Positions 8,661 to 44,263 of a stretch of DNA of 44,263 nt are shown here, piece after piece. The notes below the pieces were generated by a model. That model did no database searches, was not told the origin of the DNA, and worked only from the letters and a program-made list of their open reading frames with translations. Both the position numbers and the translations under genes were made by a program. The DNA comes from a virus: positions 1 to 44,263 of the IMG/VR virus record IMGVR_UViG_3300037506_000026; one strand, given 5' to 3'. Each line of letters opens with the position of its first letter. The first letter of the stretch is position 1.

Positions 8661-9143
8661 TCACCTCTCTATGAAATCCAATTTATCCGACGACACCAAT
8701 TCGTTCGGACTCACGAGCTTATCCCCCACATCCACCAGAGCGAATCCCGCTTCTTTATACGCACTCGCGACCCATGCTGAGCAGACTTGGTGGACGTGGG
8801 TGAGGCCAAATTGCCCAAGAAACATTTGCCAGAAAGAATATGAATCGTTGATGTGAAAGTACGCCCAATAGATCGCTCTCGTTTTGATCGCGTCATCGCA
8901 CTTGGGCCTCATCACGATTTTCGTTCTCATATCGTCGGCGATAAATCGAAAGCTCGGCCTCGGCCACTTCATGTCGATCATCAAATCCGGCTCCGTCGAG
9001 ATCATCCCCACATGAGTCATGGAAGTCTCTTTGGACATTTTCCCCATCTGCCCTCCCCACACTTGGAGCAAGGTGAAGATTCTGTTCTGCCACTTTCCGC
9101 TGTCTGGATAGAACACGATGTCTCCGGCCTTGAGTTCGATCAT
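8661..9143 (-). CDS. Permuted papain-fold (NlpC/P60 superfamily, C92 YiiX/YaeF-like) amidase
   Basis: 160 aa from the ATG at 9143 (ATGA overlap with the upstream stop). LKAGDIVFY ... MTHVGMI ... VMRPK ... VCSAWVASAYKEAG shows the His-before-Cys order typical of the permuted family. Confidence 0.6.
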   Translation of the reverse strand: MIELKAGDIVFYPDSGKWQNRIFTLLQVWGGQMGKMSKETSMTHVGMISTEPDLMIDMKWPRPSFRFIADDMRTKIVMRPKCDDAIKTRAIYWAYFHINDSYSFWQMFLGQFGLTHVHQVCSAWVASAYKEAGFALVDVGDKLVSPNELVSSDKLDFIER

Positions 9144-9760
9144 GCATAGTAGTCCAGCAAGAAGTAGACTTTTTTCGCTGTCCCTGTTGACACGGGCGTG
9201 AATGTGATCTTGAGGCGAAGCGTTGTCGCAAACTCCATGCACTCCGATGATAAGACTTCAACACGCATCCCATTCACCAAAAACAAATCCTCCATCGGTG
9301 TCATAATGGTCGTCCACACGCTGTTGATCTGCATCTGGATTTCGACCTTCACCTTATCGCCATTCGCAACGTCTTTCGAGTAAATCATCCCGCCGCGCAA
9401 ATAGATCAACGTGCCAAATGAAATATCAAGGGATGCCGAGGAATCTTCTGCGCCACAAGCAATCTCGTAGCCTTTCCACCGCTCGGTTGTGTTATTTGGT
9501 TGCGGAGAATTGCTAACGCGATGAACACGCGCCGTGCCTGCTTTTATCTCAAGAGGAGCGTTGGCGGTTGGCATGAAGTTGTCTTCGAAATCTTCGTAGT
9601 CAGCTGTGCCGGAAACGACCGTAACGTGCCACAAGAGGACATTCGCTTCTGGCGCAAAGATGTCGTAAGAATTTGCTCCGACAGAATACTGCATGAGCAA
9701 TTTTTTGGACGCGACCAGAGATTTGAAATCACTCCATGATGCGATTTCCATTGATTGCAT
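9140..9760 (-). CDS. Hypothetical structural-module protein (206 aa)
   Basis: Long ORF with a TAATG junction to the upstream gene. The sequence looks beta-rich. Confidence 0.6.
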   Translation of the reverse strand: MQSMEIASWSDFKSLVASKKLLMQYSVGANSYDIFAPEANVLLWHVTVVSGTADYEDFEDNFMPTANAPLEIKAGTARVHRVSNSPQPNNTTERWKGYEIACGAEDSSASLDISFGTLIYLRGGMIYSKDVANGDKVKVEIQMQINSVWTTIMTPMEDLFLVNGMRVEVLSSECMEFATTLRLKITFTPVSTGTAKKVYFLLDYYA

Positions 9761-17135: not shown

Positions 17136-18869
17136 TTACGCGGCCCCATCTGCTTTGCCTCCGACTCCCGCTTTTTCTTTGGCCTTGTCAGCCATGAATT
17201 TTTCTTTTTCTTCCGGCGTCATGGTTTTCATCAGGTCATTCATCTCAGCGTCCATTTCCGCTTCGTCTCCGAACCCCGCCTGTTTTCCGAGCAGAGGGTT
17301 CCCGTCGAGTTCCGCTTCGTCTTCGACCTGTTTCTGTTTGCGGACCTCCTCCGCGTAGTCGTAACCGAGAGCGGCCGATGCGGTCGGGTCGGCGATCCAT
17401 CCGTTGGATCGAGCAACGGCCAGCGCATCGGTATGAGATTTGATGTCGCGATGAACAATATCCGGCCACGACATATCGCATCCGAAGAACATCTCGGACG
17501 GCATTTCCATCTTCCCATTCGGCATGATCTCAGCCAACAGTTTTTTCTTCGGATCTTCTTTCGGTTCTTCGTCTTCTTCGCCCGTGGCGTCAACGTCCTC
17601 GCCGTCTTCCATGTCCTCAGCTTCGCCAAGGTCGCGAACGCTTTTGAGTTTGTTGATGAATTCCTCATCGTTTGGAGCTTCGAGGACGCCACCATCTACG
17701 GCGGTCTGAATGACCATCTTGTAGAGGCGTCCCAGGTGGTATTCGAGGAAAATCTGCCACGACTGAATCGCTTTGACGAACGGGCTTTCGGCCACGAGAG
17801 TGCTTGCGAAGTTGGCGTTGGACGCGTCACCCAAAATGTATTCGGGGAGGTTCGTCCCTGCGGCCATCGAGAGTTTGATGTTGCGCCCGTCTTCCTTCAC
17901 GTCCGAGGCGTTGATGTTCGGGGCTTCCATGCGGTAAGTAACGCCGGGGCCTTCGGTGATCATCGTGCCGCCTCGGATCATCTGCTTCTTGGTTTCGCCG
18001 GACGCGGTGTTGGTGGCGTTGGGGATTTTGTTGGCGAGGTTGGCGACTTCCGTCGGAGTTCCTTCGACCTTCTTGATCAACACAATGGCCGAGCGCATCT
18101 TGTTGAGCAGGATTCGGTTTTCAAGCCACTGCTCGTAGTGCTTCATCAGCGTGAGGATGGACTGCATGAACGGCTCGCCGCGCTTCTGATCTGAGTCTGC
18201 GTTGAGTTTGATGTGGAGCATATTCTCGGCTTTGATGAATCGGAATTCGTTTTCGTTCGTGCGCTTCTGGACGTGGTAGCCGATCACTTTCTCGATGTCC
18301 TCTGGGTCGGTCTGAATTCCGTTCTTGTTCGCGTCGTCCACCATCGCTCCAGGTGTGACGGGGGCGCGAACCAAAAGCGGATCGACGAAACGGATAGTCA
18401 TCTTTCCGGTTTTCTTGCCGTCTCCGTCGGTGTCAAATTTCTCGATGAAAACTTCTCCGTCACGGAAAAGTCTTTTGACGATCTCGAATTGCTTGAGTTG
18501 CATTTTGTTGCGGTCAGCCGTCCAGAATTCCCGCCACACATACCACACCAGAGGGTCTTCGCTCTTGGGGGTCATGGAGAGTCCCTTGCCCATGATGTAG
18601 TTCACCATCGTCGCAATGATGCCGTGCGCTTCGGCATCCCATCGTTCAAACTCTCTGGATTTGCGGATTACTTCGAGCTGGTTGGATTGGAGATGTCCCT
18701 TCTCGCGGTCGGTTACTCCGTACATTCGGGCCCAGCCGTCGCGGTCGGGGCGGTCGATAACAATCTGTTGCGCTTCTTCGAGGATGGATTCTTGAAGTTC
18801 CATCGACGTGCGCTTGTATTTCAATTCCGCGTTTTTGCCTCTGTACCAGTTCCAGATCAAATCTATCAT
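17136..18869 (-). CDS. Portal protein
   Basis: 577 aa directly after terL (ATGA overlap). Acidic C-terminal tail with the sequence character of the portal family. Confidence 0.85.
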   Translation of the reverse strand: MIDLIWNWYRGKNAELKYKRTSMELQESILEEAQQIVIDRPDRDGWARMYGVTDREKGHLQSNQLEVIRKSREFERWDAEAHGIIATMVNYIMGKGLSMTPKSEDPLVWYVWREFWTADRNKMQLKQFEIVKRLFRDGEVFIEKFDTDGDGKKTGKMTIRFVDPLLVRAPVTPGAMVDDANKNGIQTDPEDIEKVIGYHVQKRTNENEFRFIKAENMLHIKLNADSDQKRGEPFMQSILTLMKHYEQWLENRILLNKMRSAIVLIKKVEGTPTEVANLANKIPNATNTASGETKKQMIRGGTMITEGPGVTYRMEAPNINASDVKEDGRNIKLSMAAGTNLPEYILGDASNANFASTLVAESPFVKAIQSWQIFLEYHLGRLYKMVIQTAVDGGVLEAPNDEEFINKLKSVRDLGEAEDMEDGEDVDATGEEDEEPKEDPKKKLLAEIMPNGKMEMPSEMFFGCDMSWPDIVHRDIKSHTDALAVARSNGWIADPTASAALGYDYAEEVRKQKQVEDEAELDGNPLLGKQAGFGDEAEMDAEMNDLMKTMTPEEKEKFMADKAKEKAGVGGKADGAA

Positions 18870-20407
18870 CCGAGGAAACCTCCCACGTTGGAGTTGTCGC
18901 CGATTTCTGCGAAGTCAGCTTCTTCGGCGAGTTCGGCCTGATCGACGAAGCGTGCTTGGTTGAAGAAGTTTATGGCTTGAGTCATGGCGTCCACTTGGTC
19001 GTTGATCTCTCCGTCGGTTCCCTTGAACGCGGCGCACTCCTCGATGAAGTCGTTGACCCAAGGATTCTGATTCGGTTCGGGGAGGTGGACGTTTCCGGCT
19101 TCAACGATTGGCGACGCGGCCTGCGCCCGTGCGATCTTGGATCCCTGCGGTTGGATCGGAATGAGGCCGGAGATTTTTTTCTGCAAGACCGATATGATCG
19201 CTGGCCCGTTGGCTTTGTCTTCGATGAGGTGGCCCGTGGCTCCCTGATTCTGAGCGGCCATGATGACGACCATCTGCAACGCTTCTGAGAAATCACACCG
19301 CTCGCGCATCTGCCGGATCAAGTAATAGTCCGCTCCGCGCTTACCCCAAAGTTGTCCGACGACGAACGATCCCTCTTTGGTTTCCTTGAAGCTCATGTCC
19401 CACGAAGTGATCATCACATCGAAGCCAGACGGAAGGACGGAGTAGAATTTCCACCACGAGCGTTTGAGAATGTTGCCGATTTCTGAGGACGGGTTCTGCT
19501 GGCCTTGGGCCGCGAATGTGCGGGTACCCATTGCTTTTTTCAGTTCATCCACTTCAACCTGGCCGTGCCGTCCTTCGTTGAGGAGGTCGCCATCGTTCCG
19601 CACGATTCTTTTCTTCGAGATCGGAAATTCGATGACGGTCTTGCCTTCAGCGACCAGCGGCAGAACGACGTGGTGCCAGCCGGATTCGTTTTTGAGGATG
19701 TGGCCCGTTAAATCCTGGGCGTGAGTGCGTTGCTCGACGACGACGCGGATGCCAGTCTTTGGGTTGTCGAGCCGCGAGGAGAGGACGCTCGCGTGCATGG
19801 TTTGCATGTGATAGCGCATTGCTTCTGATTCGGCTTCGTCGGGTTTCAGCATGTCGTCCTCGACGATAACGTCTCCGCCTTTTCCTGTCAGCGTTCCGCC
19901 GACGGAGGTGGCGATCATGTGGCCGCGCGCTGTGTTTTCGTATTCGTGCTTTTGGTTTTGGTCGTCCTGGATCGTGACGAGGCCGCCCCAGTTATCTTGG
20001 AACCATTGCGACTCGATGACGCGCCGGCGTGCGAGCGAATGCTTGACGGAGAGGCCGGATGAGTACGAGCAGAATATCCAGCGCATGCTGGGCTTTTGTG
20101 TCCATGACCAGACGGGCCAGAGGATGGTCACGATGTTCGACTTCCCGTAGCGCGGGGGCATGTTGATCAAAAGTTTTTTGATCTCTCCGCGCGTGACGAG
20201 TTCCAAATGCTCGCAAAGGTAACCGACATACCACGACTCCATTAGTGGGTTGGCCGGTTCGAGGATGGGCCACGCTTTGCGAATAAATTCGGGGAAGGAG
20301 TACAGGGGCGAGATGAGTGATTTTGAAAGTCGTTTGAGTCCGTCTACGCGAGGTTCCGTGAGGTCGATGGCGGTGGAGTATTTTGACGCCGGGAATGTTT
20401 CGATCAT
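18866..20407 (-). CDS. terL: Terminase large subunit
   Basis: 513 aa. Walker A-like INMPPRYGKSN, Walker B-like GGDVIVEDD, and a C-terminal nuclease-type region. Confidence 0.9.
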   Translation of the reverse strand: MIETFPASKYSTAIDLTEPRVDGLKRLSKSLISPLYSFPEFIRKAWPILEPANPLMESWYVGYLCEHLELVTRGEIKKLLINMPPRYGKSNIVTILWPVWSWTQKPSMRWIFCSYSSGLSVKHSLARRRVIESQWFQDNWGGLVTIQDDQNQKHEYENTARGHMIATSVGGTLTGKGGDVIVEDDMLKPDEAESEAMRYHMQTMHASVLSSRLDNPKTGIRVVVEQRTHAQDLTGHILKNESGWHHVVLPLVAEGKTVIEFPISKKRIVRNDGDLLNEGRHGQVEVDELKKAMGTRTFAAQGQQNPSSEIGNILKRSWWKFYSVLPSGFDVMITSWDMSFKETKEGSFVVGQLWGKRGADYYLIRQMRERCDFSEALQMVVIMAAQNQGATGHLIEDKANGPAIISVLQKKISGLIPIQPQGSKIARAQAASPIVEAGNVHLPEPNQNPWVNDFIEECAAFKGTDGEINDQVDAMTQAINFFNQARFVDQAELAEEADFAEIGDNSNVGGFLG

Positions 20408-20895
20408 CCGTTGTTACCGATGAGCCGGTTGGATAGTGCTTCGAGTTCCTTGGCGATGGTGTTGGAGAGTTCAACGGGCATGTGCTTGCGCAGGATGAGG
20501 GTCACGTCGGTGATGAGCGTGTTCATGAAACGCATGTTGACTTCGTGGACGATCTTCTCTCGGTATACGTCTGGCATCTTGGCTTTCAGGAGGAAGATCA
20601 GGAGGGTTGCTGAGCTTGCGTCTGAGTCGGTTAAGGCGCGGACGATGGCGCGCTGTTGCAGGTTGTCGACGATGGTTGAGTCGATCTCGTTAAACTTCTC
20701 GGCGAACTTCGGATCGGATTCGCGCCAGCGCAAGACGGTCATGCGGGTGATGCCAACGGACTGGGCGGCCTGGGAAATAGAAATCTTTTTGGCGTACTGA
20801 TCCAAGAACGGTTGCTTCAAATGTTCTTTGTTCGCCTTGCTTTTTGTGTTCGGTAGATGTTGCGAGCCTCCAGTCCCGCTCTTGTCTTGCAACAT
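20404..20895 (-). CDS. terS: Terminase small subunit (HTH-containing)
   Basis: 163 aa. The HTH SISQAAQSVGITRMTVLRWRESDPKFAEKF lies directly upstream of terL, and the gene overlaps terL. Confidence 0.7.
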   Translation of the reverse strand: MLQDKSGTGGSQHLPNTKSKANKEHLKQPFLDQYAKKISISQAAQSVGITRMTVLRWRESDPKFAEKFNEIDSTIVDNLQQRAIVRALTDSDASSATLLIFLLKAKMPDVYREKIVHEVNMRFMNTLITDVTLILRKHMPVELSNTIAKELEALSNRLIGNNG

Positions 20896-29371: not shown

Positions 29372-29779
29372 CTACGTTCGTTCTTTAGTGGGTCGAATTT
29401 CGAGGCGGGTTCCGCCCTTTGGATTCTGCTTGTCCCATCGGCGATGGCAGGGCTGGCATAGCCAGCGGACTTTTAGCGGTTGGCTGTAATCGTAATGCGC
29501 GCCCTCGATGGGAATTCCAGTTCGGCGGCATTCCTCGCATTCGGTTGGGCGGTGGATATGGCCCTTGGCGATGTGGTAGCGAAGCAGGCTGGACGCCGTC
29601 CCGGCCTTAGCCGTGTGGACGTGAAATCTTACGCGCCCCGTAGCCTTTGTTAAGTACCAACATTTCTTTGAACAAAATCTTCGACCGAGATGATCCAACG
29701 GGCCGAATCGATTTCCACATTTTTCACAATTTCTAAATGTCTGTGGTTTCCGATTTCCTCCCTGTTGTCCTGGCCTCAT
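29372..29779 (-). CDS. HNH-type endonuclease / zinc-finger protein
   Basis: 135 aa. CEKCGNRF...CSKKC, then CEECRRTGIPIEGAHYDYSQPLKVRWLCQPCHRRWD. Confidence 0.65.
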   Translation of the reverse strand: MRPGQQGGNRKPQTFRNCEKCGNRFGPLDHLGRRFCSKKCWYLTKATGRVRFHVHTAKAGTASSLLRYHIAKGHIHRPTECEECRRTGIPIEGAHYDYSQPLKVRWLCQPCHRRWDKQNPKGGTRLEIRPTKERT

Positions 29780-31182
29780 AATTTCTGCGGCTTAACTCCC
29801 GTGAGCTTCTCGAACCTCTGAAGGATAACATCGCAATACGCGCGGTCGAGTTCGATGCCGTAGCATTTGCGGCCCGTGGATTCGGCTCCGAGGAGCGTGG
29901 TGCCGCTTCCTAGAAACGGGTCGATCACGATCTCGCCGGGCAGGCTTGAGTTTTGGAGCGCGCGGCGCGCCAGCTCCACCGGTTTTTGGGTGGGGTGTTC
30001 GTAGTCCGACTCGCGGGATACCTCCCAGAGGTCGTCCTCCCCTTTGCTGGAGGCCAAAATTAACGCCTCCCCTTGAGCCAGGCGAACGTTTCGCACCTTT
30101 TTAGGGGTAGGGCCTGGGCCGATGAAAATCGTCGAGCCTTGGCCATCCTGGACGTTTATACCGTGTCCGAGCGTCATGCTCTGGCCGGTTTTGGTTTTGT
30201 AGCCGAGTCGCCAGACGGTTGATTCGTTCCGCTGGCCGAAGTAGCGGGGCTTCTGTCCTTCCTTGGCGGCGTAGAAACACGGCTCATGCGCCCAGCGGTA
30301 ATCGCTCCAGCCCAGCACGAAGCTCGGCTTAGCCCAGATGATGTATTGGCGTTCCATAATTCCGGCGGCCTTAAGGGCGTAGGAGAATTCGTCGCGGGTC
30401 GTGGTGGCGTGCCAGACGTACCAGGCGGCGTCGTCCGAGGCGTGGAGCATGGCCTGCTGGAACACGGGTTTTAAGAGATCGACGATCAGCCGGTCGCCGG
30501 TCTTTTCGTCGTTCTGGATTTTGGCGAATTTGTCCGTGGTCGATTCGTAGCTGATCCCATACGGCGGGTCGGTGAAGATGAGGTTGGCTTGCGCACCGTC
30601 CATAAGCGCGGCCCATATGTCCGGGTTCTTGGCGTCACCGCAGATGAGCCGATGGTTTCCCAACGCCCACATTTCCCCGGTGCCAAATTCTTTGCCCGCC
30701 GCGATCTCCGGCTTCACGGCGTCGTCCAGGGCCTTCTCGCTGGTTCCTTCCACTTCGTTCATGAGCGCGCGCGCGGTCGCGTCGTAACCGGTTAGGTCAA
30801 GATCGAGCGAGCTTTTCATGAGTTCTTGCATCATCGATCCCACGGCGTCGCCATCGATGTCAGCGAGTTCGGCGATCCGGTTGTCGGCCAGCAGGTCGGC
30901 CAGCTCGACTTCCTCGTTTACGTATTCCTGGTAATCGACCGGCACGTGCGTCACCAGCATTTTCTTAGCGGCCATCAGGCGCGCGTGGCCGGATGTAATG
31001 AATCCTGATCGCTTAGACACCGTGATCGGCTTGCGCCATCCCTGGGCTTTGATGATCCGGGCGAGCAGTTCCACTTGCTCATCCGAGTGTCGGTTCGGGT
31101 TACGCGGGTGGGGCTTGAGGTTGCCCACCGGCTCGATGGCGTTGTGGGAGCAGTGAACGTCGAGGAAGTCGGCCTTGGCCAT
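29776..31182 (-). CDS. ParB-like nuclease domain fused to an N6/N4 DNA methyltransferase
   Basis: 468 aa. N-terminal LKPHPRNPNRHS...ITSGHARLMAA (ParB/Srx-like). Catalytic LIFTDPPYG, and a C-terminal SAM-binding block VIDPFLGSGTTLLGAE. Confidence 0.85.
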   Translation of the reverse strand: MAKADFLDVHCSHNAIEPVGNLKPHPRNPNRHSDEQVELLARIIKAQGWRKPITVSKRSGFITSGHARLMAAKKMLVTHVPVDYQEYVNEEVELADLLADNRIAELADIDGDAVGSMMQELMKSSLDLDLTGYDATARALMNEVEGTSEKALDDAVKPEIAAGKEFGTGEMWALGNHRLICGDAKNPDIWAALMDGAQANLIFTDPPYGISYESTTDKFAKIQNDEKTGDRLIVDLLKPVFQQAMLHASDDAAWYVWHATTTRDEFSYALKAAGIMERQYIIWAKPSFVLGWSDYRWAHEPCFYAAKEGQKPRYFGQRNESTVWRLGYKTKTGQSMTLGHGINVQDGQGSTIFIGPGPTPKKVRNVRLAQGEALILASSKGEDDLWEVSRESDYEHPTQKPVELARRALQNSSLPGEIVIDPFLGSGTTLLGAESTGRKCYGIELDRAYCDVILQRFEKLTGVKPQKL

Positions 31183-33766: not shown

Positions 33767-34249
33767 TTAGTAAGTTGCCGGCTCTTTGCCCAGTATTAAA
33801 TCGGCGAAATCGAGTTCGAGAAGCCCGTGCCGCTTTGATTCCTGGTACCGCTCTCCGTTCCAGCGCGCGTTGCCGCGCCCGGCGAAAGCGTTTCCGTTCA
33901 CGCACACGCACGCGAGCGCGAACTGGTATTTGTCTTTGTTGCGCATTGTGACGATCCCGCGTCCGTCGCACTTCTCGCATTGCGTTTTCACTTCTTCCTC
34001 GTAGGTCATCTTGTCTTTGATGGCGTCGAGGAGGTTGGCGAATTTGATCGACTTCAAATCCTCCGCCTGTAGAGACTTGATCCCAGCGAGGATGGCCTGC
34101 GCCGGGTATCCGGTCTGTCCGAGTTCGTCGAGCAGGATCACTTTTTTTTCTTTTGACATGGGTCGGTCTTGAAGCACGAACAGTTTTTCGAGTTCGTTGC
34201 CGATGCGTATCTTGTCGTTATCGTCGAGCGGCGTTGTTAGTTCGTTCAC
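33767..34249 (-). CDS. Replication-module protein with a Cys cluster (160 aa), GTG start
   Basis: GTG lies 6 nt after AAAAAACTGGAGG. Contains CEKCDGRG...CVCVNG. Confidence 0.5.
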   Translation of the reverse strand: MNELTTPLDDNDKIRIGNELEKLFVLQDRPMSKEKKVILLDELGQTGYPAQAILAGIKSLQAEDLKSIKFANLLDAIKDKMTYEEEVKTQCEKCDGRGIVTMRNKDKYQFALACVCVNGNAFAGRGNARWNGERYQESKRHGLLELDFADLILGKEPATY

Positions 34250-35063
34250 GTTCTTCCTCCAGTTTTTTTAATTCCTTCAGCAAATCGTCGTCCGCTTTGG
34301 CCTTCGGGTCGATTTTCTCTTTGAAAATTAACCGGTTCCATTTCGCGTCGAGCGTCTCGATGGTAAATTCGGCCCAGCCTTCCTCTTTCGTGAACCACTT
34401 GTCCCGGTTCTCGCACGCCTCGCCGAGCATTTGCGCTTTCCTCACGGTCACGGCCAGCCCGTGCGAGTCGATCATCCGCTTGGCGATCCGCAGGATTGCT
34501 GGGGTGGCGTTGAATGGTTCGCCGGTGCGGCTGGCATACACTGCACCAAATTGGCGGACGAAGTCTACGTGGATTCCAAACTCTTGCGGCGGGGCTTGGC
34601 GAGTGAGCGGCGCGGCGCGCTGGGGTACGATGCTGGGGGGTTTGAAATCGGTTGGGCTGATCGTGCCTATATTACGCGTACACGCGCGCTCTGCCTCTGT
34701 CTCTGCCTCTGTCTCTCCCTCTTTCTCTGTCTCTCTCTCTTCTCTTCTCTTCTCTGGAGTATCAAGTTGATGTCGTGATGATATCGCTCTGATATCAAGT
34801 TGTTCCAGCCAGTGAGACAGCGTGATGATTTGGGTGGCGATTTCTTTAGCGGGGAGGCGTAGGCGGAAGGAAAGTGTTTCGATGTCCGGGACGTCTCCGT
34901 TGTTTTCGCTGGCGATGAGCCAAAGGTTGATGAGCAATCCCTTTGCGTCTCCACGAAGCTTGAACCATTCGACGTCGTCGAGTAGGTCGCGGTACAGTTT
35001 AATCCACGGGGGGCGACGATCTTTAAAGTGTTGGAACCGACTCCAGTTTTTGATGCGAACCAT
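34218..35063 (-). CDS. Putative replication initiation / organiser protein (DUF1376/YdaU-like N-terminus)
   Basis: ATG at 35063 lies 5 nt after GGAGG. N-terminus IKNWSRFQHFKDRRPPWIKLYRDLLDDVEWFKL. Internal acidic linker EKRREERETEKEGETEAETEAE. Confidence 0.55.
   Translation of the reverse strand: MVRIKNWSRFQHFKDRRPPWIKLYRDLLDDVEWFKLRGDAKGLLINLWLIASENNGDVPDIETLSFRLRLPAKEIATQIITLSHWLEQLDIRAISSRHQLDTPEKRREERETEKEGETEAETEAERACTRNIGTISPTDFKPPSIVPQRAAPLTRQAPPQEFGIHVDFVRQFGAVYASRTGEPFNATPAILRIAKRMIDSHGLAVTVRKAQMLGEACENRDKWFTKEEGWAEFTIETLDAKWNRLIFKEKIDPKAKADDDLLKELKKLEEERERTNNAARR
34689..34802. repeat. Polypyrimidine/polypurine tract with a tandem 12-mer, plus two direct TATCAAGTTG repeats; candidate origin inside the replication gene
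   Basis: On the plus strand, 34689..34755 contains no A and only 5 G. ctctgcctctgt is duplicated in tandem (34689..34712). TATCAAGTTG occurs at 34760..34769 and 34793..34802. GATATC occurs at 34780..34785 and 34791..34796. Confidence 0.5.
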
Positions 35064-35123
35064 TTTCACCTCCAGGTTGTGTAGGGCCCAAACTTACGAC
35101 AATCTTTGCGAGATGGGAACCGG

Positions 35124-35163
35124 AAAACAAAAACCCCCCGGCTCTCCGACGAGAACCGAGGGG
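35124..35163 (-). terminator. Rho-independent terminator
   Basis: Minus-strand RNA CCCCUCGGUUCUC-GUCG-GAGAGCCGGGGGG forms a 13-bp stem and is followed by UUUUUGUUUU. Confidence 0.8.
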
Positions 35164-35188
35164 TCTGATTAAAAGTTGGGTGGCGCGA

Positions 35189-35198
35189 AACCTGGAGG
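35189..35198 (-). promoter_or_regulatory. Anti-Shine-Dalgarno element, perfectly complementary to the SD region of the replication gene (35069..35078)
   Basis: The minus-strand RNA carries CCUCCAGGUU at 35198..35189 and AACCUGGAGG at 35078..35069. This 10-nt perfect inverted repeat brackets the terminator. Confidence 0.4.
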
Positions 35199-35233
35199 AG
35201 ACGCGGCACACCCGCCAAATCGTTCCCGTGAAC

Positions 35234-35545
35234 CTACAAGAATTTTTGCACGTCGTCAATGCTTCGAGCGACGAACGCGATCCCGTTGTTCACGATGACG
35301 TTGTTGATGAACTCTGTTTGTTCCGGCGTCGGGTTCTTGCCCGGTACCTTCACTTCGATCGAGAAGAATCTTCCATCCTTCGTGAGGCCGAGAATGTCTC
35401 CCGACCCTTTTTTGCCGAAGGTGTAGTAGTGATCCCGCTTGTCGATGAACCCGCCCGTGTTATTCCGCCACGCGAAAAGTCCGCGAAACTTAAGGTAATC
35501 CAGGATCGCTTTCTGGATTTCTTTTTCAGTTGGCTTGAGGCGCAT
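35234..35545 (-). CDS. VRR-NUC domain nuclease
   Basis: 103 aa. IQKAILDYLKFRGLFAWRNNTGG...KGSGDILGLTKDGRFFSIEVKVPG...PEQTEFI. Confidence 0.75.
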   Translation of the reverse strand: MRLKPTEKEIQKAILDYLKFRGLFAWRNNTGGFIDKRDHYYTFGKKGSGDILGLTKDGRFFSIEVKVPGKNPTPEQTEFINNVIVNNGIAFVARSIDDVQKFL

Positions 35546-35565
35546 TCATCCATTTTAGCACGTTC

Positions 35566-36009
35566 TTACTTCGGTTCCTCTTTGGTTACGTTGCGCGCGC
35601 CGAGATTCTGTCCGAAGCTCAGGGCCGCTCCAACGAGCGCGGTCATGGTCGGCATCCACACGGGGTCGATGCCACCGGTGTTGAGGGCCACCAACATTTT
35701 CTGCGCTTCCGTTAAACCGGACATCCAGAATTCCGTGGTGCGAAGTGTTCCCTTGATCTCCGGGCCTTCCGCTTTATCGAGTCCGCGCAGGACGTTGTAG
35801 AGAGCTTGCATGACCGAGGTGACGATGAGTTGAGTTTGAGGCGGTATCACGCCCGCAAGCGCGCCGGCGGTTGTGCCGAGCGTGCCGATGAGTGTGACCG
35901 CAAACGAGAACCACTTCTTTGTTTTCTTGGCTTGCTGGGCGGCTTCGATGACCTCGCCGACCGGCTTGCGTACTTTTACGAGCAGTTTGAGTTTTTCAAT
36001 AAGTCCCAT
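35566..36009 (-). CDS. Multi-pass membrane protein (147 aa), holin-like candidate
   Basis: Hydrophobic segments WFSFAVTLIGTLGTTAGALAGVI, LIVTSVMQALYNVL and VWMPTMTALVGAALSFG. Located in the lysis region. Confidence 0.55.
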   Translation of the reverse strand: MGLIEKLKLLVKVRKPVGEVIEAAQQAKKTKKWFSFAVTLIGTLGTTAGALAGVIPPQTQLIVTSVMQALYNVLRGLDKAEGPEIKGTLRTTEFWMSGLTEAQKMLVALNTGGIDPVWMPTMTALVGAALSFGQNLGARNVTKEEPK

Positions 36010-36021
36010 GTTTGAATCCTC

Positions 36022-36582
36022 CTATTTGAAATTGCGCCCTAATATCAGGGCGATCCACCAGAAGATGCGATCGGCGTCTCTCTTGGCTCCGATGTATCCC
36101 ATCCAGAGTTGGCCGTCACGATCTTCTTTTGTTCCGTCCGGGATCGGTTGAGCCCCGGTGTTGTATTTGTGAAACGAGAAAAACAGCGGCCACTGGATGG
36201 CCCAGTGCCATGCACTCCAGTATTGAATCCGGGAGAGGTAATAACCAGGATTGGCTTTTATGAATTCGTCCGGCTCCATACCACTGGCCACGTCCGGTTT
36301 CCCGTCGGCCTCGTATCGCCACGATCCGACGCCCTTGCGCGCGATGAGGACGATCGGCGTTTCGCGCCATTTGCGCATGAGGATGAACGGCGGCCACATC
36401 GAGAACGCAATTCCTTTTGGCGAGCGCGGGCCGAAGGCGTCCCAGTGTTTTGTGGCTTTGTTCCACCGCTTCCAGAGGTTGCCGAAAAATCCTTTGTACT
36501 GACTGTCGTCTGGAAACGCCGCCTCGACTTCCTCTTTGGTGTTGAGGTGTTCCGGGAAGGCCGATCTGTCACCGATGCCCAT
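36022..36582 (-). CDS. Trp-rich hypothetical protein (186 aa), possibly membrane-associated
   Basis: ATG at 36582 follows AAAGGAGGAAACAGA and overlaps the cyclase stop by 14 nt. 17 Trp, with hydrophobic patches IAFSMWPPFILM, WHWAIQWPLFFSF and IFWWIALILG. Confidence 0.55.
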   Translation of the reverse strand: MGIGDRSAFPEHLNTKEEVEAAFPDDSQYKGFFGNLWKRWNKATKHWDAFGPRSPKGIAFSMWPPFILMRKWRETPIVLIARKGVGSWRYEADGKPDVASGMEPDEFIKANPGYYLSRIQYWSAWHWAIQWPLFFSFHKYNTGAQPIPDGTKEDRDGQLWMGYIGAKRDADRIFWWIALILGRNFK

Positions 36583-37206
36583 TCTGTTTCCTCCTTTCTT
36601 CACAGCAGTTATACGACCACAGCGCGTGCAAGTCCTCTTGCTCGACGCCATCGAGCGCGGTGCGGTGCGGGTTCACTTTCTTAAATTCGACGTGATCTTT
36701 TTGACCGATGATGTCCTTTACGCTCTCATGGCAGATGAGCGGAACGTCCGGGCAGACGCGCAGGAGCCGGGCCGCGAGGTTCATCGCGTATCCGACAAAA
36801 TCTGTTTCACCGTCGAGCGTTTTGATTTTGAAAACTTGGCCGGCGGCGATGCGTACACGAAAACCGTCGGGCTTAGGAAAACTGGGGATCGCTGAGATGA
36901 TCTGATTAACTTCTTCGGCAAGGGCGTGAAGCTCGCAGAGAAATTTGACGGCAGTGTGGCAGTTGTGACCTTGTACCAGCGTGGTGATCGCGAGGAATCC
37001 GTCTCCCAGGTATTTGACGAAATGCTCTGAGGCGAACCGGTAACGGGCAAATACGGCGTAGATGTCTTTGACGAATTTCTCGAACGTCTCCGGGTCGCGC
37101 GATGCGATTTTCGCATACGATCCGAAGCGTGTGACGTCCGCAAATGCGCAGATGACCCTCGCTTTCTCGATGCGGAGTTTGCGCTTTTTTTTGATTGCTT
37201 GTTCAT
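36569..37206 (-). CDS. Class III nucleotidyl (adenylyl/guanylyl/Pycsar-type) cyclase homology domain protein. Needs a -1 shift at the A8 run, or a CTG start at 37213.
   Basis: The frame of the 71-aa ORF is open up to 37236. It reads ...VICAFADVTRFGS...KYLGDGFLAI...FRVRIAAGQVF...DFVGYAMNLAARLL..., which are the four hallmark CHD blocks. The ATG at 37206 is in the neighbouring frame. Confidence 0.7.
37185..37192 (-). promoter_or_regulatory. A8 homopolymer / A_AAA_AAA slippery heptamer joining the ATG frame to the cyclase frame
   Basis: Minus strand reads ATG AAC AAG CAA TCA AAA AAA AGC. A -1 slip or one extra A gives ...TCA AAA AAA AAG CGC AAA CTC = MNKQSKKKRKLRIEKARVICAFADV. Confidence 0.6.
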
Positions 37207-37226
37207 GTGTCAGATCGCTTCTCCAG

Positions 37227-37673
37227 TTAGGGTTTCATCATTCCGTTGGCGGTGAAGAGCATCTTCGCAATCCAAAACAACGCACCAACAAAAACCACGC
37301 CGATGCTCCCCTTGTACAGGGTATCGAGGCGGTTATCGAATCCGTTCAAGCGTTTCTCCAGCGCGTCATCTTCTTTTTTGTCGGACTCTTTTTTGTTGCG
37401 CATCTCTGCTTTCACTTCGCCGAATGACACCATGAGTTCGTCGACTTTCTTCGATGTTTCTGTGAGCGTTTTTGAAACGCCGAATTCAAATCGTTCCTTA
37501 AGCTGGCCCTGTTGATTGAGCATCAGCTCCATTTTGTTTTCGAGCTTGAGTTGTTCTTTTAAGAACGACTCCATCCGATCCTTGACCTCGTTAATTTCCC
37601 GGCGACGATCGGAGTCCAGTTGGAACACCACGTTCTCTGTGACGGCGGATGGCTGTTTAATTTCTTCGCTCAT
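37227..37673 (-). CDS. Coiled-coil protein with a C-terminal transmembrane anchor (148 aa), lysis-region accessory
   Basis: Long charged helix, then SIGVVFVGALFWIAKMLF at the C-terminus. Overlaps the endolysin stop by 4 nt. Confidence 0.55.
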   Translation of the reverse strand: MSEEIKQPSAVTENVVFQLDSDRRREINEVKDRMESFLKEQLKLENKMELMLNQQGQLKERFEFGVSKTLTETSKKVDELMVSFGEVKAEMRNKKESDKKEDDALEKRLNGFDNRLDTLYKGSIGVVFVGALFWIAKMLFTANGMMKP

Positions 37674-38158
37674 ACACCGATCCTCTTGGCGAGACTCAGC
37701 ACCCGGAACGACCAGTTGATGGCGAACACGAGCAGGTTCGGCTTGGCCGCCATGAGCCGAGCGTATGCCGCGAGCCGTTCGGCCAGAGCCAGACGCATCG
37801 CACGTGGTTGCGCCGCGTGGGCCGCCGCAAGGGTCTTTGGCCCGATGATGCCGTCATCTTTAACTTTCAGAGCGCGTTGCATGATACAGATCGCCGTCTG
37901 CGTCCCTTGGTTCACGGCGCAGTCGAAAAGCGAGATCGCAAACTCGCGCGGGAGTTCGTCGCACTTGCAAGGTGCCCAGTAGTCGCGCTTATAAATATCC
38001 ATCGCCTCCGCCACCGTCAGGTTGCGGATGTCCAGGTTCGGGTACGCTTTTTTGCTGATCCCGAATTTGGTCACGCCACCTGGATCGTTCGGGTCGTCGG
38101 TCAGCCCGCCCTCTTGCTCAAGTACAAATGCGATCGCGTCATCCCAGTCAGTTCTCAT
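37670..38158 (-). CDS. Endolysin: glycoside hydrolase family 108 plus a peptidoglycan-binding (PG_binding_3) domain
   Basis: From the ATG at 38158: DDAIAFVLEQEGGLTDDPNDPGGVTKFGISKKAYP (the GH108 EGG...DPGG.T..GI signature), then LKVKDDGIIGPKTL. Confidence 0.8.
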   Translation of the reverse strand: MRTDWDDAIAFVLEQEGGLTDDPNDPGGVTKFGISKKAYPNLDIRNLTVAEAMDIYKRDYWAPCKCDELPREFAISLFDCAVNQGTQTAICIMQRALKVKDDGIIGPKTLAAAHAAQPRAMRLALAERLAAYARLMAAKPNLLVFAINWSFRVLSLAKRIGV

Positions 38159-38549
38159 GGCCGTTGTTCTCCTTGTTCTCAAGAGATGGGAGAGGAACGG
38201 CCTCGATCATCTCGCGTTGTGTGTCGGCCAAGTCTTGAATAGCGTGAGCCGCTTTCGCCATCGCTCCGGCAAATCCCTTCATATTCTCGTTTGTTTCGTT
38301 GCGGAACTCTTGAGTAGTCGCGGTCATGTGACGCGTCATCTGAGAGGATTCCAAAACGACAACCGGAACCCACGCCATCGCACAATCGTAATGGTCGATC
38401 ACTTTTTCCGATTGCGGATCTTTCCCGGCGACGTGCGTCCACCACCGGCACGGTTTTGTCGAGCTATCGAAATCGCTTCGGATTCCCTCTTTGCAAAGTT
38501 TCCCATTCAAGGGACAGGTCATCTCAGTACGTGTTGATTCTGGTTGCAT
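38148..38549 (-). CDS. Hypothetical protein (133 aa) upstream of the endolysin
   Basis: ATG at 38549 follows TAGGAGGCTCC. Cys pairs and one short hydrophobic segment, CAMAWVPVVVL. Confidence 0.5.
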   Translation of the reverse strand: MQPESTRTEMTCPLNGKLCKEGIRSDFDSSTKPCRWWTHVAGKDPQSEKVIDHYDCAMAWVPVVVLESSQMTRHMTATTQEFRNETNENMKGFAGAMAKAAHAIQDLADTQREMIEAVPLPSLENKENNGHEN

Positions 38550-38557
38550 GGAGCCTC

Positions 38558-40309
38558 CTAATTTTTCTGGCACAAGATTACGTTGGCGTAAGCGAACGTC
38601 ACGTTGCTGAGTGCGCTCGAACTTGTGCCTCCGTGATTGTGCGAATCAGTTGTCGTCGTTGTGGCGACAGACGTTGTTGTATTTTTCAGCCTGGACCCGA
38701 ACACACCCGTGTCCGACCCGACATGGACTTCGTTGCCGCTCGGATTGGTCAGATAGCGATTCGAGATCGGAGTCCCGGCGGCTTGAGAATTAGTGTCCAT
38801 GACGTGTGAATGGCTCGGATAAGTGTGGCTGTGAACGTACGAAGTGATCGAGTGGGTGTGAGCGAGAGTGATGGCATTTGAAATCAAATGGCTCCCGCCG
38901 CTTCCCCCGCCCGCGCCCGATACTACGCGAAGAACCTTGTCGTGCTGAGCCGACACCAACGTCCATAAAAGCGGAATCGCCGATTGATAGAAGGCCATGA
39001 TTGATCCGGCCGGTGTCGTGTGATAGCGAATATGCTCATCATTCTGCGCGTATTTGTTCAGCCGTTGTTTTGACACGAGGTCTTTGTATTGGATTGTTGA
39101 TGTCAAATCTTGGAATGAATAAGGCGCTCCCGTTCCGAGTTTTTGGCACTGAATCATGTCAACGTAGGCCAAAACTATATTGGTCAAAGAAGAGTTGAGT
39201 GTATGTGTATGATCGGGGTCTGTGCCAGACGCGCCACCGCCGCCTGTTTTATTCGTGCGGCCTTTGACGGCGCTCTGAACCGATCCATCGTTGTTGGTCG
39301 GTTTGAAGTAATCGCTTCCGTCAACGGTGATATAAAAAAACACGCCGCTGAATGAAGCGGGGCCAGCTGTTACTTGACCAACATCATGACGATGACTTCC
39401 GAGCGTGTGAGAGTGAGATCCGGAAGCGGCAGTGGAGTGTATATGTTGAAGCGTAATTGTCTGTCCTGTCCCAAGGCTCCCGCCGGTTCCACCTCCGGCT
39501 CCTGAAACGATGCGGAGAGCTTTGTCGTTTTGCGTTGCGAGCTTACTCCATCCTGTCGGAGCGGCCGCGTTGTAAAACATCGACACCGTTCCGGTCGGAG
39601 TGAGACGCGCTTGATTGAATACGTCGTTCCCATATAAGCCGGACGTCGCTCCGAAAGGTTCATAGCGGATGCGATCGTTGTGGTTGAAAAAAGCCGTAAA
39701 ATCCGTGTAACCGGAAGATGTTGATTTCACTCCGATGATGACATCAGCATAAGCTGGCTGAACATTTGAAAGAGCGCTGTTTGAAGCGTGGCTGTGGCTT
39801 CCCGCCGAACTTGTTGCATCAACATCACTTGCCGTCGTGACGAAATTTTTTGACCAACGCGGAGTCGAACCTGATCCGAACGTGTTTTGAAATTGAGAAT
39901 TTACTGTATTGCCTATAGCGGTTGGGAAGTTGGAGCCTATGGAATTCGACCCCACTCCCGTAGTCATTCCGTGCGCATGAGACGATATTCCAGAATGGCT
40001 GTGATTCCCAACCCCCGTAATAGTTCCGTGATCGTGAACCAACGTCAACCCAGAGGAAACGGCAAGCGATCCACCGACGGCACCTCCGGGGTTTCCTCCC
40101 GTGTTGTTTACCACGCGAAGAAACTTGTCGTTAGCCGAAACATCTTGCGTCCATCCGGTCGGAACTGCCGCCTGAAAGAAAACAACTTTGACCGAATCCT
40201 GCCAGCCATTGTCCTTGAGGTATTGGTCGTTCTCTCCGAGCTGATCGAATTTAGATCGCAAGAGAGGTTGTTTATAAATAAATTGATCGACGAGGTTTTG
40301 GTAAGCCAT
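38558..40309 (-). CDS. Tail fibre protein with three tandem tail-collar-like repeats and many HxH motifs
   Basis: 583 aa. VVFFQAAVPTGWTQDVSANDKFLRVVNNTGGNPGG / VSMFYNAAAPTGWSKLATQNDKALRIVSGAGGGTGG / IMAFYQSAIPLLWTLVSAQHDKVLRVVSGAGGGSGG, each followed by His-x-His clusters. Confidence 0.75.
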   Translation of the reverse strand: MAYQNLVDQFIYKQPLLRSKFDQLGENDQYLKDNGWQDSVKVVFFQAAVPTGWTQDVSANDKFLRVVNNTGGNPGGAVGGSLAVSSGLTLVHDHGTITGVGNHSHSGISSHAHGMTTGVGSNSIGSNFPTAIGNTVNSQFQNTFGSGSTPRWSKNFVTTASDVDATSSAGSHSHASNSALSNVQPAYADVIIGVKSTSSGYTDFTAFFNHNDRIRYEPFGATSGLYGNDVFNQARLTPTGTVSMFYNAAAPTGWSKLATQNDKALRIVSGAGGGTGGSLGTGQTITLQHIHSTAASGSHSHTLGSHRHDVGQVTAGPASFSGVFFYITVDGSDYFKPTNNDGSVQSAVKGRTNKTGGGGASGTDPDHTHTLNSSLTNIVLAYVDMIQCQKLGTGAPYSFQDLTSTIQYKDLVSKQRLNKYAQNDEHIRYHTTPAGSIMAFYQSAIPLLWTLVSAQHDKVLRVVSGAGGGSGGSHLISNAITLAHTHSITSYVHSHTYPSHSHVMDTNSQAAGTPISNRYLTNPSGNEVHVGSDTGVFGSRLKNTTTSVATTTTTDSHNHGGTSSSALSNVTFAYANVILCQKN

Positions 40310-42659: not shown

Positions 42660-44263
42660 CTAATTGAATTTTGCTTTTGATTTCAAGTCTGCCAATTCAT
42701 CTTCGAGCTTGCGAACGTGAGCGCATAATATACCCACGACGGCATTTTCGTAATTCATGGTTTCAAGAATATGCCCGTCCTCGATTGGCCGACAAACGCT
42801 TGGGAGATTGTCGTTCAAGTAGCCCATGAATCTTCGCCCGCCCCTATCAAATAAAATGCCGCGCGGGATTTCCACGGAGGCGGGGTCGATGTCAGTGATG
42901 TTTTCTTTCGTCGATGAATGCGATGTGTTGATCGTGCTGTTTGTTGCGAAAACAGTATTCCATCTCGCCGAGCCGGAGCCAAGATTCATAGTTCCGTCCG
43001 TGCCACCAGGAGAAAGTTGCCCTGTCGTAAGAGCAAGATGTTGAGCGCCATTGCAAGCCCAACCGATAACATCCGCGCCCTGCCTAAACATGCCGGTGTT
43101 CGTGTCGTTCGTAAACGTGAATGATGGCGATGCCGCTGATCCATCCTCCAACCTGCAATTCAGCGCATTCAAATTGCTCTCCGTGCTAAAATTGAAGTCC
43201 CCCGTCGTAATTCCAAAGCGTAACACCCCGCCCGTCGAAAAGTTCAATTGGTTTGATCCGGCACGATATATGCCTGTATCCTGGTCACTGTCAAAAGAAA
43301 TGCTTGGAGTTCCAGCCGACCCGTCTCCAACTCGTAATGGTGTGGCATTAAGCAGAGTAAATTGAGAACCCGTTGAGAAAGAAAGACCTTGGGAACCATT
43401 TGTAGACCACCCAATAGTATTAGCTCCTTGTCGAAACATTCCGGTGTCCGTATCCGATGTAAACGTAATTGAAGGGGCCGCCGCGCTTCCGTCTGCGAAC
43501 TGGATCGTTGATGTCAACACTCCACTATTGACAGTCAACCCACTGTTGTCGATGGTGACGCGGAGAACGCCGTTGGTGGAGAAGCCGATAGAGTCCGCCG
43601 ATGGACTAAACATCCCAGTATTTCCGTCCCCGTTATATGAGTATGTCGGAAGGGACGCAGAGCCGAGCGGAGAAAACATTTGACCCCCTCCACCAAGCGT
43701 GAAATGATCGGTTGAACCAATCCTAAAAATCATCACTTCGTTTGCTGCCGTTGCATTGTGTGTGTATTGAATCAACCCTTGCACTGTCGTGCCTTCTGCA
43801 TCAGTAAAGGCAAGAATGCCGGAATTGTTAGTGCCAGAACGAATTGTGATTCCTGTTGAGCCAGTGGACGAGGCGACGACGAATTGACGAGCGTTTGAAT
43901 TGTATGAGATAGGGCTTGCTGTTCCGAGTCCCATACGGCCACCTGAATCGACAACCCACCGTTGCACTCCCGCTGTTCCGAGGGACACTTCATCTGCCGC
44001 GCTATTGTAGAGTCCTGTGTTGTCGTCTGCCGCCCATGAGTACGTTGGCAAGGTGACGCTTCCAGCTTGTCCAAGAAATGTCCCAACCTCAAGAGAAACA
44101 CCGTCCGAGCCGATGCGCATAATCTGAACGCCGCCAATGGCAAAGCCAATGCGCGTTGAGATGGAATACATCCCCTTGCTTGGAATCCCCATAAACGAAT
44201 AAGACGGTGCCACCGCTGAACCAAGCGGCGCAAGAATTTGAGTCGCGCTCAACCCTAACCGAT
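42660..44263 (-). CDS. Tail fibre protein, main body: about six copies of a ~40-aa repeat plus a C-terminal S74-type intramolecular chaperone domain. Its N-terminus is at 473..1.
   Basis: Repeats of the type PS[YI][ST]F..D.[DN]TG[MI][FY]....[AD]..[GS][FW][SA]T.G. C-terminus ...TSHSSTKENITDID...MNYENAVVGILCAHVRKLEDELADLK resembles Peptidase_S74. Confidence 0.8.
   Translation of the reverse strand, partial: RLGLSATQILAPLGSAVAPSYSFMGIPSKGMYSISTRIGFAIGGVQIMRIGSDGVSLEVGTFLGQAGSVTLPTYSWAADDNTGLYNSAADEVSLGTAGVQRWVVDSGGRMGLGTASPISYNSNARQFVVASSTGSTGITIRSGTNNSGILAFTDAEGTTVQGLIQYTHNATAANEVMIFRIGSTDHFTLGGGGQMFSPLGSASLPTYSYNGDGNTGMFSPSADSIGFSTNGVLRVTIDNSGLTVNSGVLTSTIQFADGSAAAPSITFTSDTDTGMFRQGANTIGWSTNGSQGLSFSTGSQFTLLNATPLRVGDGSAGTPSISFDSDQDTGIYRAGSNQLNFSTGGVLRFGITTGDFNFSTESNLNALNCRLEDGSAASPSFTFTNDTNTGMFRQGADVIGWACNGAQHLALTTGQLSPGGTDGTMNLGSGSARWNTVFATNSTINTSHSSTKENITDIDPASVEIPRGILFDRGGRRFMGYLNDNLPSVCRPIEDGHILETMNYENAVVGILCAHVRKLEDELADLKSKAKFN
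44137..44263. repeat. Second copy of the 127-bp terminal overlap (= 1..127)
   Basis: Exact identity with bases 1-127. Confidence 0.9.

Follow-up and report, generated by a model that had tools for sequence, protein, structure and literature searches.

The DNA analysed here, hereafter called the window, is the whole stretch of 44,263 nucleotides (nt) at positions 1 to 44,263 of the IMG/VR virus record IMGVR_UViG_3300037506_000026. The gene content of the contig is that of a complete siphovirus-like genome of ~44 kb from an uncultured phage. Our subject is a gene for a predicted class III nucleotide cyclase, which lies in the lysis cassette in the last part of the late operon, where all genes are located on the minus strand and no promoter-like site was found inside the cassette. 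The gene order was as described in a first-pass annotation of the window: a Cys-rich protein (p141), a GH108 endolysin, a K/E-rich membrane protein (ccTM), the cyclase, a Trp-rich protein of 186 amino acids (aa), a membrane protein of 147 aa (p147) and a VRR-NUC-type nuclease, after which the strong terminator was also recovered (Table 1). The same annotation had combined cyclase, Trp-rich protein and p147 into a signalling triad. On the comparisons described below, we see about an even chance that the gene supplies the phage with an accessory cyclase which is active and has its target outside of this triad.

The assignment to class III was borne out by the structural model, the family profile and the intact active-site residues. 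An AlphaFold2 (AF2) model of the protein reached a predicted local distance difference test score (pLDDT) of 93.7 and a predicted template modelling score (pTM) of 0.88. With this model Foldseek retrieved 156 matches from the PDB at E<=0.001, the top 50 of which were all catalytic domains of class III adenylyl or guanylyl cyclases (AC/GC); the top matches had a probability of 1.0 and a TM-score of ~0.65, with only 14-19% identity to the solved structures. A word-index search yielded six clusters of close homologues, and the profile derived from these was run against 1.84 billion representatives (E<=0.001). The wider family recovered in this way comprises 435 representative clusters from metagenomes, mostly stand-alone proteins of ~200 aa, from which 97 relatives were sampled for profile tests against Pfam, PADLOC and the PDB. 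PF00211 was matched by 45 of the 97 (best 2.2e-15), and the profile of the 97 sequences matched 54 solved class III cyclases, with CyaB of P. aeruginosa (3r5g, 4.3e-13) and Rv1625c-type domains (~1e-11) as the best matches.

The FADV and GDG motifs reported initially were both confirmed. The metal-binding residues D26 (FADV) and D71 (KYLGDG) align to the FSDI and VGDC motifs of CyaB, K67 and D138 (DFVG) are located at the canonical Lys/Asp positions which contact the base, and the transition-state residues N145 and R149 (MNLAARL) are present as well. With all six canonical catalytic residues, a complete active site of the homodimer type is predicted. Within 11 phage cyclases D26, K67, D71 and R119 are invariant, and the position of D138 is occupied by D or E. 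The encoded enzyme should accordingly be regarded, as far as model and alignment can tell, as a genuine class III nucleotide cyclase which consists of the catalytic domain only and has no sensor domain. It has the fold, the metal-binding Asp pair, the Lys/Asp pair and the Asn/Arg pair in common with bacterial AC/GC domains such as CyaB, Rv1625c and Cya2 (2w01). Unlike these, it is phage-encoded, has neither a membrane domain nor a HAMP, GAF or other regulatory domain fused to it and carries a C-terminal motif of the phage family's own, GV(D/E)xED..LW. Comparison with the cyclase gene of a related locus (L010) gave a pN of 0.16 versus a pS of 0.76, with synonymous sites saturated, values which show that purifying selection has acted on the gene. 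A Lys/Asp pair is classically read as the signature of adenine. The residues by which clade D PycC recognizes UTP include a Lys (K104), and the PycC clades differ in their specificity residues (PMC11224242); for this reason the product of the phage cyclase is not assignable from sequence.

The cyclase frame contains no ATG, GTG or TTG upstream of the Met codon at 36784, and it was consequently missed by the mechanical list of open reading frames (ORFs). The start region was compared among the window and the corresponding regions of L010 (384-443), L012 (~715-800) and L001 (10100-10168), all of which are independent assemblies. Each of the four has a GGAG, a spacer of 7-10 nt and an in-frame CTG soon after the stop codon of the upstream gene, and the K-rich N-terminal stretch which follows the CTG is conserved at the protein level in all of them. 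Thirteen codons past the CTG, L010 and L001 carry an in-frame ATG (MQR...), where the window has ATC; like the window, L012 has no start codon at this position, and neither of the two has a canonical start. An ATG one base out of frame is located at the same offset in all four sequences, and the cyclase frame reads across it as (A/C)AT Gxx, with Asn or His before the next codon. In the window it is followed by a run of eight A (A8), which contains a possible -1 slip site (A_AAA_AAA). The heptamer is unique to the window and absent from L010, L012 and L001, and the RNA that follows it is not structured beyond expectation (z = +0.63).

As the GGAG-CTG arrangement and the K-rich stretch are conserved, while the A8 run is not and the RNA behind it has no unusual structure, initiation at CTG is favoured. 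Most likely, the cyclase is initiated at this conserved weak CTG, possibly by re-initiation after ccTM, and is expressed at a low level; frameshifting and loss of expression are the less likely alternatives. The gene therewith probably exemplifies a non-canonical CTG start that has been conserved. A programmed -1 frameshift at A8, entered from the ATG at 37206, was rejected as the main route on account of the non-conserved heptamer and the lack of excess RNA structure. A homopolymer sequencing error is unlikely, too, because the relation between the ATG and the cyclase frame is identical in four independent assemblies.

Alternatively, the loss of the ATG (ATC at 37169-37171) could have switched the cyclase off and set it on the way to a deletion of the type seen in the related locus L003. 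The window and L012 indeed have no ATG, GTG or TTG start, L010 and L001 have an ATG at the site in question, and one relative, L003, has lost the cyclase cleanly. We nevertheless hold a silent gene to be very unlikely: the frame stays open over 214 codons, has kept each catalytic residue and is under strong purifying selection, two independent lineages without the ATG (window and L012) have retained the frame, the GGAG and the CTG, and the amino-acid sequence of the K-rich extension upstream of the ATG position is conserved throughout the four loci.

Gene callers truncate the cyclase at an internal GTG (P0004, 167 aa), and P0002, which comprises 168 aa from an internal Met on a contig of 909 bp, is possibly a truncated call as well. 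Otherwise they would call an overlapping ORF of 141 aa in the wrong frame (36781-37206).

Table 1. Positions of genes and sequence features in the window.
Feature	Position	Strand	Details
Tape measure	1245-3080		
Large terminase	18866-20407		
Small terminase	20404-20895		
ParB-like/DNA methyltransferase fusion	29776-31182		phrog_498, 5e-125
Replication protein	34218-35069		
Intrinsic terminator	35131-35166	minus	End of late operon; 16-bp stem with 9 G-C pairs, 4-nt loop, T-rich tail
VRR-NUC-type nuclease	35234-35545	minus	phrog_93 endonuclease, 4.8e-19
p147, holin candidate	35566-36009	minus	147 aa, membrane protein; one clear transmembrane segment, residues 37-55
Trp-rich protein	36022-36582	minus	186 aa, 7.0% Trp; ATG 36580-36582
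Shine-Dalgarno sequence of the Trp-rich gene	36590-36596	minus	AAGGAGG
Cyclase, open frame	36569-37234	minus	TGA 36569-36571
Cyclase, proposed coding part	36569-37213	minus	214 aa from CTG
Cyclase motif NLAAR	36767-36781	minus	
Cyclase motif DFVG	36791-36802	minus	
Cyclase motif KYLGD	37001-37015	minus	
Cyclase motif FADV	37133-37144	minus	
ATC codon	37169-37171	minus	In-frame ATG (MQR...) in L010 and L001; 13 codons past CTG
A8 run	37185-37192	minus	A_AAA_AAA, possible -1 slip site, use unlikely; downstream of the out-of-frame ATG
Out-of-frame ATG	37204-37206	minus	Same offset in L010, L012 and L001
Proposed cyclase start CTG	37211-37213	minus	In frame; 7 nt after GGAG, 13 nt past the ccTM stop
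GGAG of the proposed start	37221-37224	minus	
ccTM	37227-37673	minus	148 aa, K/E-rich (coiled-coil-like), one C-terminal transmembrane anchor, residues 124-142
GH108 endolysin with PG_binding_3	37670-38182	minus	PF05838 4.6e-26; PF09374 4.8e-07; phrog_315 endolysin 4.9e-45
p141, Cys-rich protein	38148-38573	minus	141 aa from GTG, 133 aa from internal Met
Tail fibre	38558-40309		
Tail fibre	42660-44252		

Ten cyclase contexts with flanking sequence were available for the comparison of the gene neighbourhood (window, L010, L012, L002, L011, L143, L147, L001, L141 and L142), and their cyclases are 29-78% identical to that of the window. In all ten the gene directly upstream of the cyclase encodes a single-pass membrane protein with a coiled coil, and the two genes overlap or are separated by no more than 13 nt. 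Seven contexts (window, L010, L012, L002, L011, L143 and L147) have a protein of the ccTM type, which shows a GVSKT-like motif and has its transmembrane (TM) segment at the C-terminus (phmmer and Hidden Markov Model (HMM) values of 3e-12 to 2e-29). In L001, L141 and L142 the upstream gene encodes an unrelated protein of 65-85 aa (the 'F(M/V)xxFRWITPL' type), the TM segment of which is N-terminal. A short helical tail follows this segment in L141 and L142. In all three loci the gene stops at the cyclase start or shortly before it.

The endolysins encoded next to the cyclase vary: GH108 enzymes in the window and L001, an M15-like protein in L002 (phrog_894, 5.4e-12) and a Peptidase_M15_3 protein in L142. 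The proteins at the endolysin position of L011 (174 aa) and L141 (148 aa) are unassigned, and L143 and L147 have no adjacent endolysin, that of L147 being encoded 3.5 kb away on the other strand. The cyclase cassette is usually followed by a VRR-NUC-like or RusA-like nuclease and recombination genes. The location of the cyclase at the lysis end of the late operon, described initially for the window, hence recurs in all ten contexts with changing endolysin families, and the robust association is that of a single-pass membrane protein with a cyclase behind it, located where the late operon ends and in most cases within the lysis cassette. That a non-homologous protein of comparable type can take the place of the upstream protein speaks for more than synteny by inheritance alone.

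The upstream protein in the window is K/E-rich and coiled-coil-like, its earlier description as a coiled-coil protein with a C-terminal TM anchor proved correct (Kyte-Doolittle hydropathy (KD) of 2.03 at the anchor), and no family was assigned to it in Pfam, PHROG, PADLOC or NCBIfam. Among the cyclase-bearing relatives L010 and L012 the identity of ccTM is 88-93%, whereas the ccTM of L003 (5591-5992) is only 36% identical to that of the window and the flanking genes are 56-75% identical. The divergence of ccTM may track the presence or absence of the cyclase, or ccTM may be a simple recombination module.

According to the first-pass annotation, cyclase, Trp-rich protein and p147 form a signalling module in which a cyclic mononucleotide (cNMP) made by the phage is sensed by one of the partners and gates holin triggering. 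The genes are adjacent in the window, and the overlap of 14 nt between the Trp-rich gene and the end of the cyclase gene was found to be exact. Moreover, the order of cyclase and Trp-rich gene is kept in L010, L012 and L001, a Trp-rich homologue is also encoded in L002, 1.5 kb from the cyclase on the opposite strand, and the many invariant polar residues of the Trp-rich protein could bind a small ligand. The distribution of the genes largely refutes the module all the same. The Trp-rich family of phages comprises at least 62 homologous clusters (P0008-P0068 among the homologues), compared with six clusters of the close cyclase family, and most of its members occur without a cyclase (L003-L009). 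In the close relative L003/L004 the order of tail fibre, p141, GH108 endolysin, ccTM, Trp-rich protein and p147 is identical to the window with the cyclase precisely absent; ccTM and the Trp-rich gene are separated by 8 nt at the site where the cyclase would be. The identities of L003 to the window amount to 75% for the tail fibre, 73% for p141, 66% for the GH108 endolysin, 36% for ccTM, 64% for the Trp-rich protein and 56% for p147. L005/6, L007 and L008/9 likewise have the Trp-rich gene, HMM searches detected no cyclase in them, and five cyclase contexts (L011, L141, L142, L143 and L147) have no Trp-rich gene nearby.

The distribution of p147 points in the same direction. Homologues of the window type were found only in the cyclase-less L003 and in L010, leaving out a short partial ORF after the Trp-rich gene of L012; elsewhere the cyclase is followed by a two-TM family of 83-101 aa or by other small TM proteins, all of which are unrelated to p147. 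The identities between the window and L012 are mosaic, with 92% for ccTM, 58-60% for the cyclase and 63% for the Trp-rich protein, and the Trp-rich proteins of L010 and L012 are ~96% identical. Recombination therefore separates the cassette genes freely, with breakpoints falling between the genes, and this independent exchange speaks against a module as well. Neither partner has a cNMP-binding domain by sequence, and the Trp-rich protein has no such fold match and no TM segment. Altogether we consider the triad most improbable as a functional unit. The Trp-rich protein and p147 are independent genes of the cassette and not parts of a fixed three-gene module, and in this group of phages the cyclase is an accessory gene that can be absent.

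Both partners had been described as membrane-associated, which holds for p147 with its one clear TM segment; for the Trp-rich protein no TM segment is predicted, and its model is that of a soluble, beta-rich protein. The further description of p147 as a multi-TM protein is uncertain: the segment at residues 37-55 (KD 1.66) is clear, and two additional hydrophobic segments are weak (KD 1.17 and 0.90). The AF2 model of the Trp-rich protein (pLDDT 91.3) consists of N-terminal helices followed by a beta-rich core, for which Foldseek returned no match in the PDB or BFVD at E<=0.001. The protein has no match among PDB sequences and no family in Pfam, PHROG, PADLOC or NCBIfam. The absence of a recognisable cNMP-binding motif from both partners, noted before, was corroborated by searches of Pfam, PADLOC and NCBIfam, and for the Trp-rich protein also by fold. 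A cNMP-binding or other known domain was thereby rejected for the Trp-rich protein at the level of sequence family, PDB sequence, PDB fold and BFVD fold, and the model presents it as a soluble, beta-rich protein that is not a cNMP-binding domain. The invariant polar residues D25, R89, E91, R118, Q120, D169 and D171 suggest an enzyme or a ligand-binding site. As a side result, this widespread phage family has a confident model without match to PDB structures or BFVD predictions. Trp-rich genes are often, but not always, found near endolysins (GH108 in L003, Peptidase_M23 in L007).

The two-TM proteins of 83-101 aa have in common an amphipathic helix at the N-terminus and the motif WN[FY]xxHRF at the C-terminus (phmmer 1e-14 to 1e-18). 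In three distant phages (L002 4166-4417, L011 7072-7377 and L141 1772-2026) their genes come right behind that of the cyclase. The proteins have no match in PHROG or NCBIfam and represent a holin-like candidate family.

Cyclic nucleotides are central to bacterial immunity against phages, as in Pycsar, CBASS and type III CRISPR systems, and the countermeasures known from phages degrade or sequester them. A cyclase family encoded by phages would give the phage control of the signal itself. The enzyme family as such is known; a stand-alone class III cyclase family within phage late or lysis operons is undescribed in the literature searched, in which we also found no class III cyclase of a phage lysis cassette. 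A tblastn search of 50,697 GenBank phage records returned no cyclase homologue. In IMG/VR only one contig with a relative was detected (L011, the same as L016), scans with single proteins gave nothing, and a scan of JGI metagenomes added two further loci. A motif scan of GTDB genomes produced at least 120 loci, all of them chance matches with no real family member among the matches listed, and was uninformative.

In Pycsar the cyclase has a membrane effector as its partner, and the effectors are defined by a cNMP-binding domain. Like PycC with its partners PycTM or PycTIR, the phage enzyme is a small class III cyclase with membrane proteins encoded beside it. The PADLOC PycC model was matched by 40 of the 97 sampled relatives (best 9.8e-13), and several relatives match other PycC models. 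Variants of ~310 aa with an N-terminal Cys-rich, zinc-ribbon-like region also occur in the wider family. One of them, P0095 (315 aa, zinc-ribbon-like region and cyclase; L144 6001-6948, also in L145 and L146), is encoded in an integrative island together with an integrase, two N6/N4 methyltransferases, Peptidase_M78 and DUF4411 proteins, a protein of 707 aa and a DEAD/Helicase_C/MZB protein of 1626 aa. This island looks like an undescribed defence locus which contains a cyclase. For the clade D uridylate cyclase AnPycC a distinct zinc-finger motif has been reported (PMC11224242). The PycC matches and the zinc-ribbon relatives in a defence island therefore tie the phage family evolutionarily to Pycsar-type cyclases.

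On these grounds the gene might serve in conflicts, producing cCMP, cUMP or another non-canonical cNMP for competition between phages, for superinfection exclusion or against host immunity. The phage's own membrane proteins could be the effectors, given that membrane proteins flank the cyclase as in the pairing of Pycsar, or else cNMP-dependent effectors of the host could be mistimed or saturated late in infection. The matching PycC models, the zinc-ribbon-fused relatives and the zinc finger of AnPycC are in line with this idea. However, the window cyclase itself matches no PycC model and has no sensor or zinc-finger extension, its Lys/Asp pair is the canonical one for adenine, and no neighbour has a cNMP-binding domain: ccTM, the Trp-rich protein and p147 match neither PF00027 nor a PADLOC effector. 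The gene is located in a late structural and lysis operon and not in a cellular defence operon or island, and neither integrase nor repressor was found in the phage. We therefore judge a Pycsar-derived conflict gene unlikely; from the sequence relationships the phage family appears related to PycC without being a demonstrated member of Pycsar.

The GH108 and PG_binding_3 domains identify the endolysin of a lysis cassette. As in the cassettes of phages of Gram-negative bacteria and in T4-type lysis inhibition, the endolysin and small membrane proteins are co-transcribed and tightly packed at the end of the late operon. In contrast to the window, none of these systems has a nucleotide cyclase in the searched literature or among GenBank phages, and the membrane proteins of the window match no holin or spanin family. 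p147 and ccTM, which both have TM segments, gave no holin match in Pfam, PHROGs or NCBIfam and no match to a GenBank phage protein. An embedded o-spanin, u-spanin or lipoprotein was rejected as well, since the minus strand between 35200 and 38700 contains no ORF with a signal-peptide-like segment and lipobox. The endolysin type with GH108 and PG_binding_3 is usual in phages of Gram-negative bacteria, and given the missing lipobox ORF the step of outer-membrane disruption is unaccounted for.

The constant pairing with an upstream membrane protein could also mean that the two genes encode a split membrane-anchored cyclase. Late in infection this enzyme would produce the phage's own second messenger at the inner membrane and thereby set or sense the time of lysis, for example through holin triggering or lysis inhibition coupled to membrane state or superinfection. 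The lysis cassette would then contain a cyclic-nucleotide timer of viral origin. In membrane-anchored class III cyclases the TM part, the coiled coil or cyclase-transducer element and the catalytic domain follow each other, and the gene order of L001, L141 and L142 mimics this fused architecture split into two genes. The ccTM of the window, by contrast, has the reversed polarity with the coiled coil first and the TM segment at the C-terminus, and ccTM also occurs without a cyclase in L003. We regard a split cyclase as quite unlikely.

The preferred reading, an active accessory cyclase with a target outside of the triad, would operate as follows. Without a sensor domain and on a late transcript without internal promoter, the cyclase would be made late and, if the CTG start is used, in small amounts. 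It would form a constitutively active homodimer and produce a 3',5'-cyclic mononucleotide, for which neither the Trp-rich protein nor p147 would be the receptor. As no phage-encoded receptor is recognisable, the target would be a cNMP-binding protein of the host or an unrecognised receptor of the phage. The upstream membrane protein would be an example of the latter and, to judge from the gene neighbourhoods, is the sole candidate backed by its distribution. The outcome could be an adjusted timing of lysis or an altered condition of the infected cell; the evidence fits equally well with an influence on the physiology of the host or on its cNMP-dependent immunity. If active, the cyclase could time lysis, manipulate CRP-type regulation of the host, or interfere with or exploit host cNMP-dependent effectors.

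Several observations weigh against this reading. Taken alone, the window cyclase remains below the gathering score of PF00211 (18.5 bits, E=0.0016, compared with 21.9 bits) and has only a marginal match among PDB sequences (1ybt, E=1.2), so that the assignment to class III depends on the family profile and the fold; PADLOC PycC models gave no match at E<=0.1. No cNMP receptor was recognised anywhere in the scanned ORFs of the phage. The Lys/Asp pair favours cAMP, a pyrimidine product is also possible, and the base specificity cannot be read from the sequence. The missing canonical start could instead indicate a poorly expressed or decaying cyclase gene in this phage. The presence of ccTM in the cyclase-less L003 indicates a function of its own. 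The cassette of L003 evidently works with no cyclase, so that a role in lysis would be modulatory at most, for instance in timing or conditional delay. Finally, the recurrent neighbourhood could be synteny inherited in one phage lineage, the ten contexts not being phylogenetically independent. The lead which survives is the pair of membrane protein and cyclase, together with the CTG start and the question of the receptor.

In the remainder of the genome, portal, head morphogenesis and protease/capsid genes were found besides the terminase, tape measure and tail fibre genes, as well as a replication and recombination block with the ParB-methyltransferase fusion, exonucleases and the replication protein. 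The large terminase (TerL) is at best <=37% identical to those of GenBank phages, the cassette region has no DNA match in GenBank phages, and in the tblastn search the Trp-rich protein, p147 and ccTM remained without match, as did the cyclase. The VRR-NUC protein scores slightly below the cut-off of Pfam PF08774 (20.9 bits, E=4e-4). Pfam matches to cNMP-binding, phosphodiesterase, integrase or repressor families were absent from the 53 other ORFs of the window, and separate scans of the cassette genes gave no cNMP-binding domain. With neither integrase nor repressor among the scanned ORFs, the idea of a prophage moron is unsupported, and the lifestyle of the phage is not settled by that. An Rfam scan of 34000-39000 gave nothing meaningful.

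p141 has no family in Pfam, PHROG or NCBIfam, and homologues occupy the equivalent position in L001 (58% identity; 8865-9293) and L003 (73%; 4682-5086). Proteins of this type (~140 aa, C-x6-C ... C ... C and an acidic C-terminus) are always encoded between the last tail-fibre gene and the endolysin and could be tail-fibre chaperones or lysis components. Further ORFs of the window encode a protein with MptE-like domain (2.7e-34), family-2 glycosyltransferases and a Methyltransf_24 protein. Tet_JBP is present in the relatives L001 and L003, and TAGT also in L001. Together with the methyltransferases and glycosyltransferases, this content suggests DNA hypermodification or glycosylation in this group of phages.

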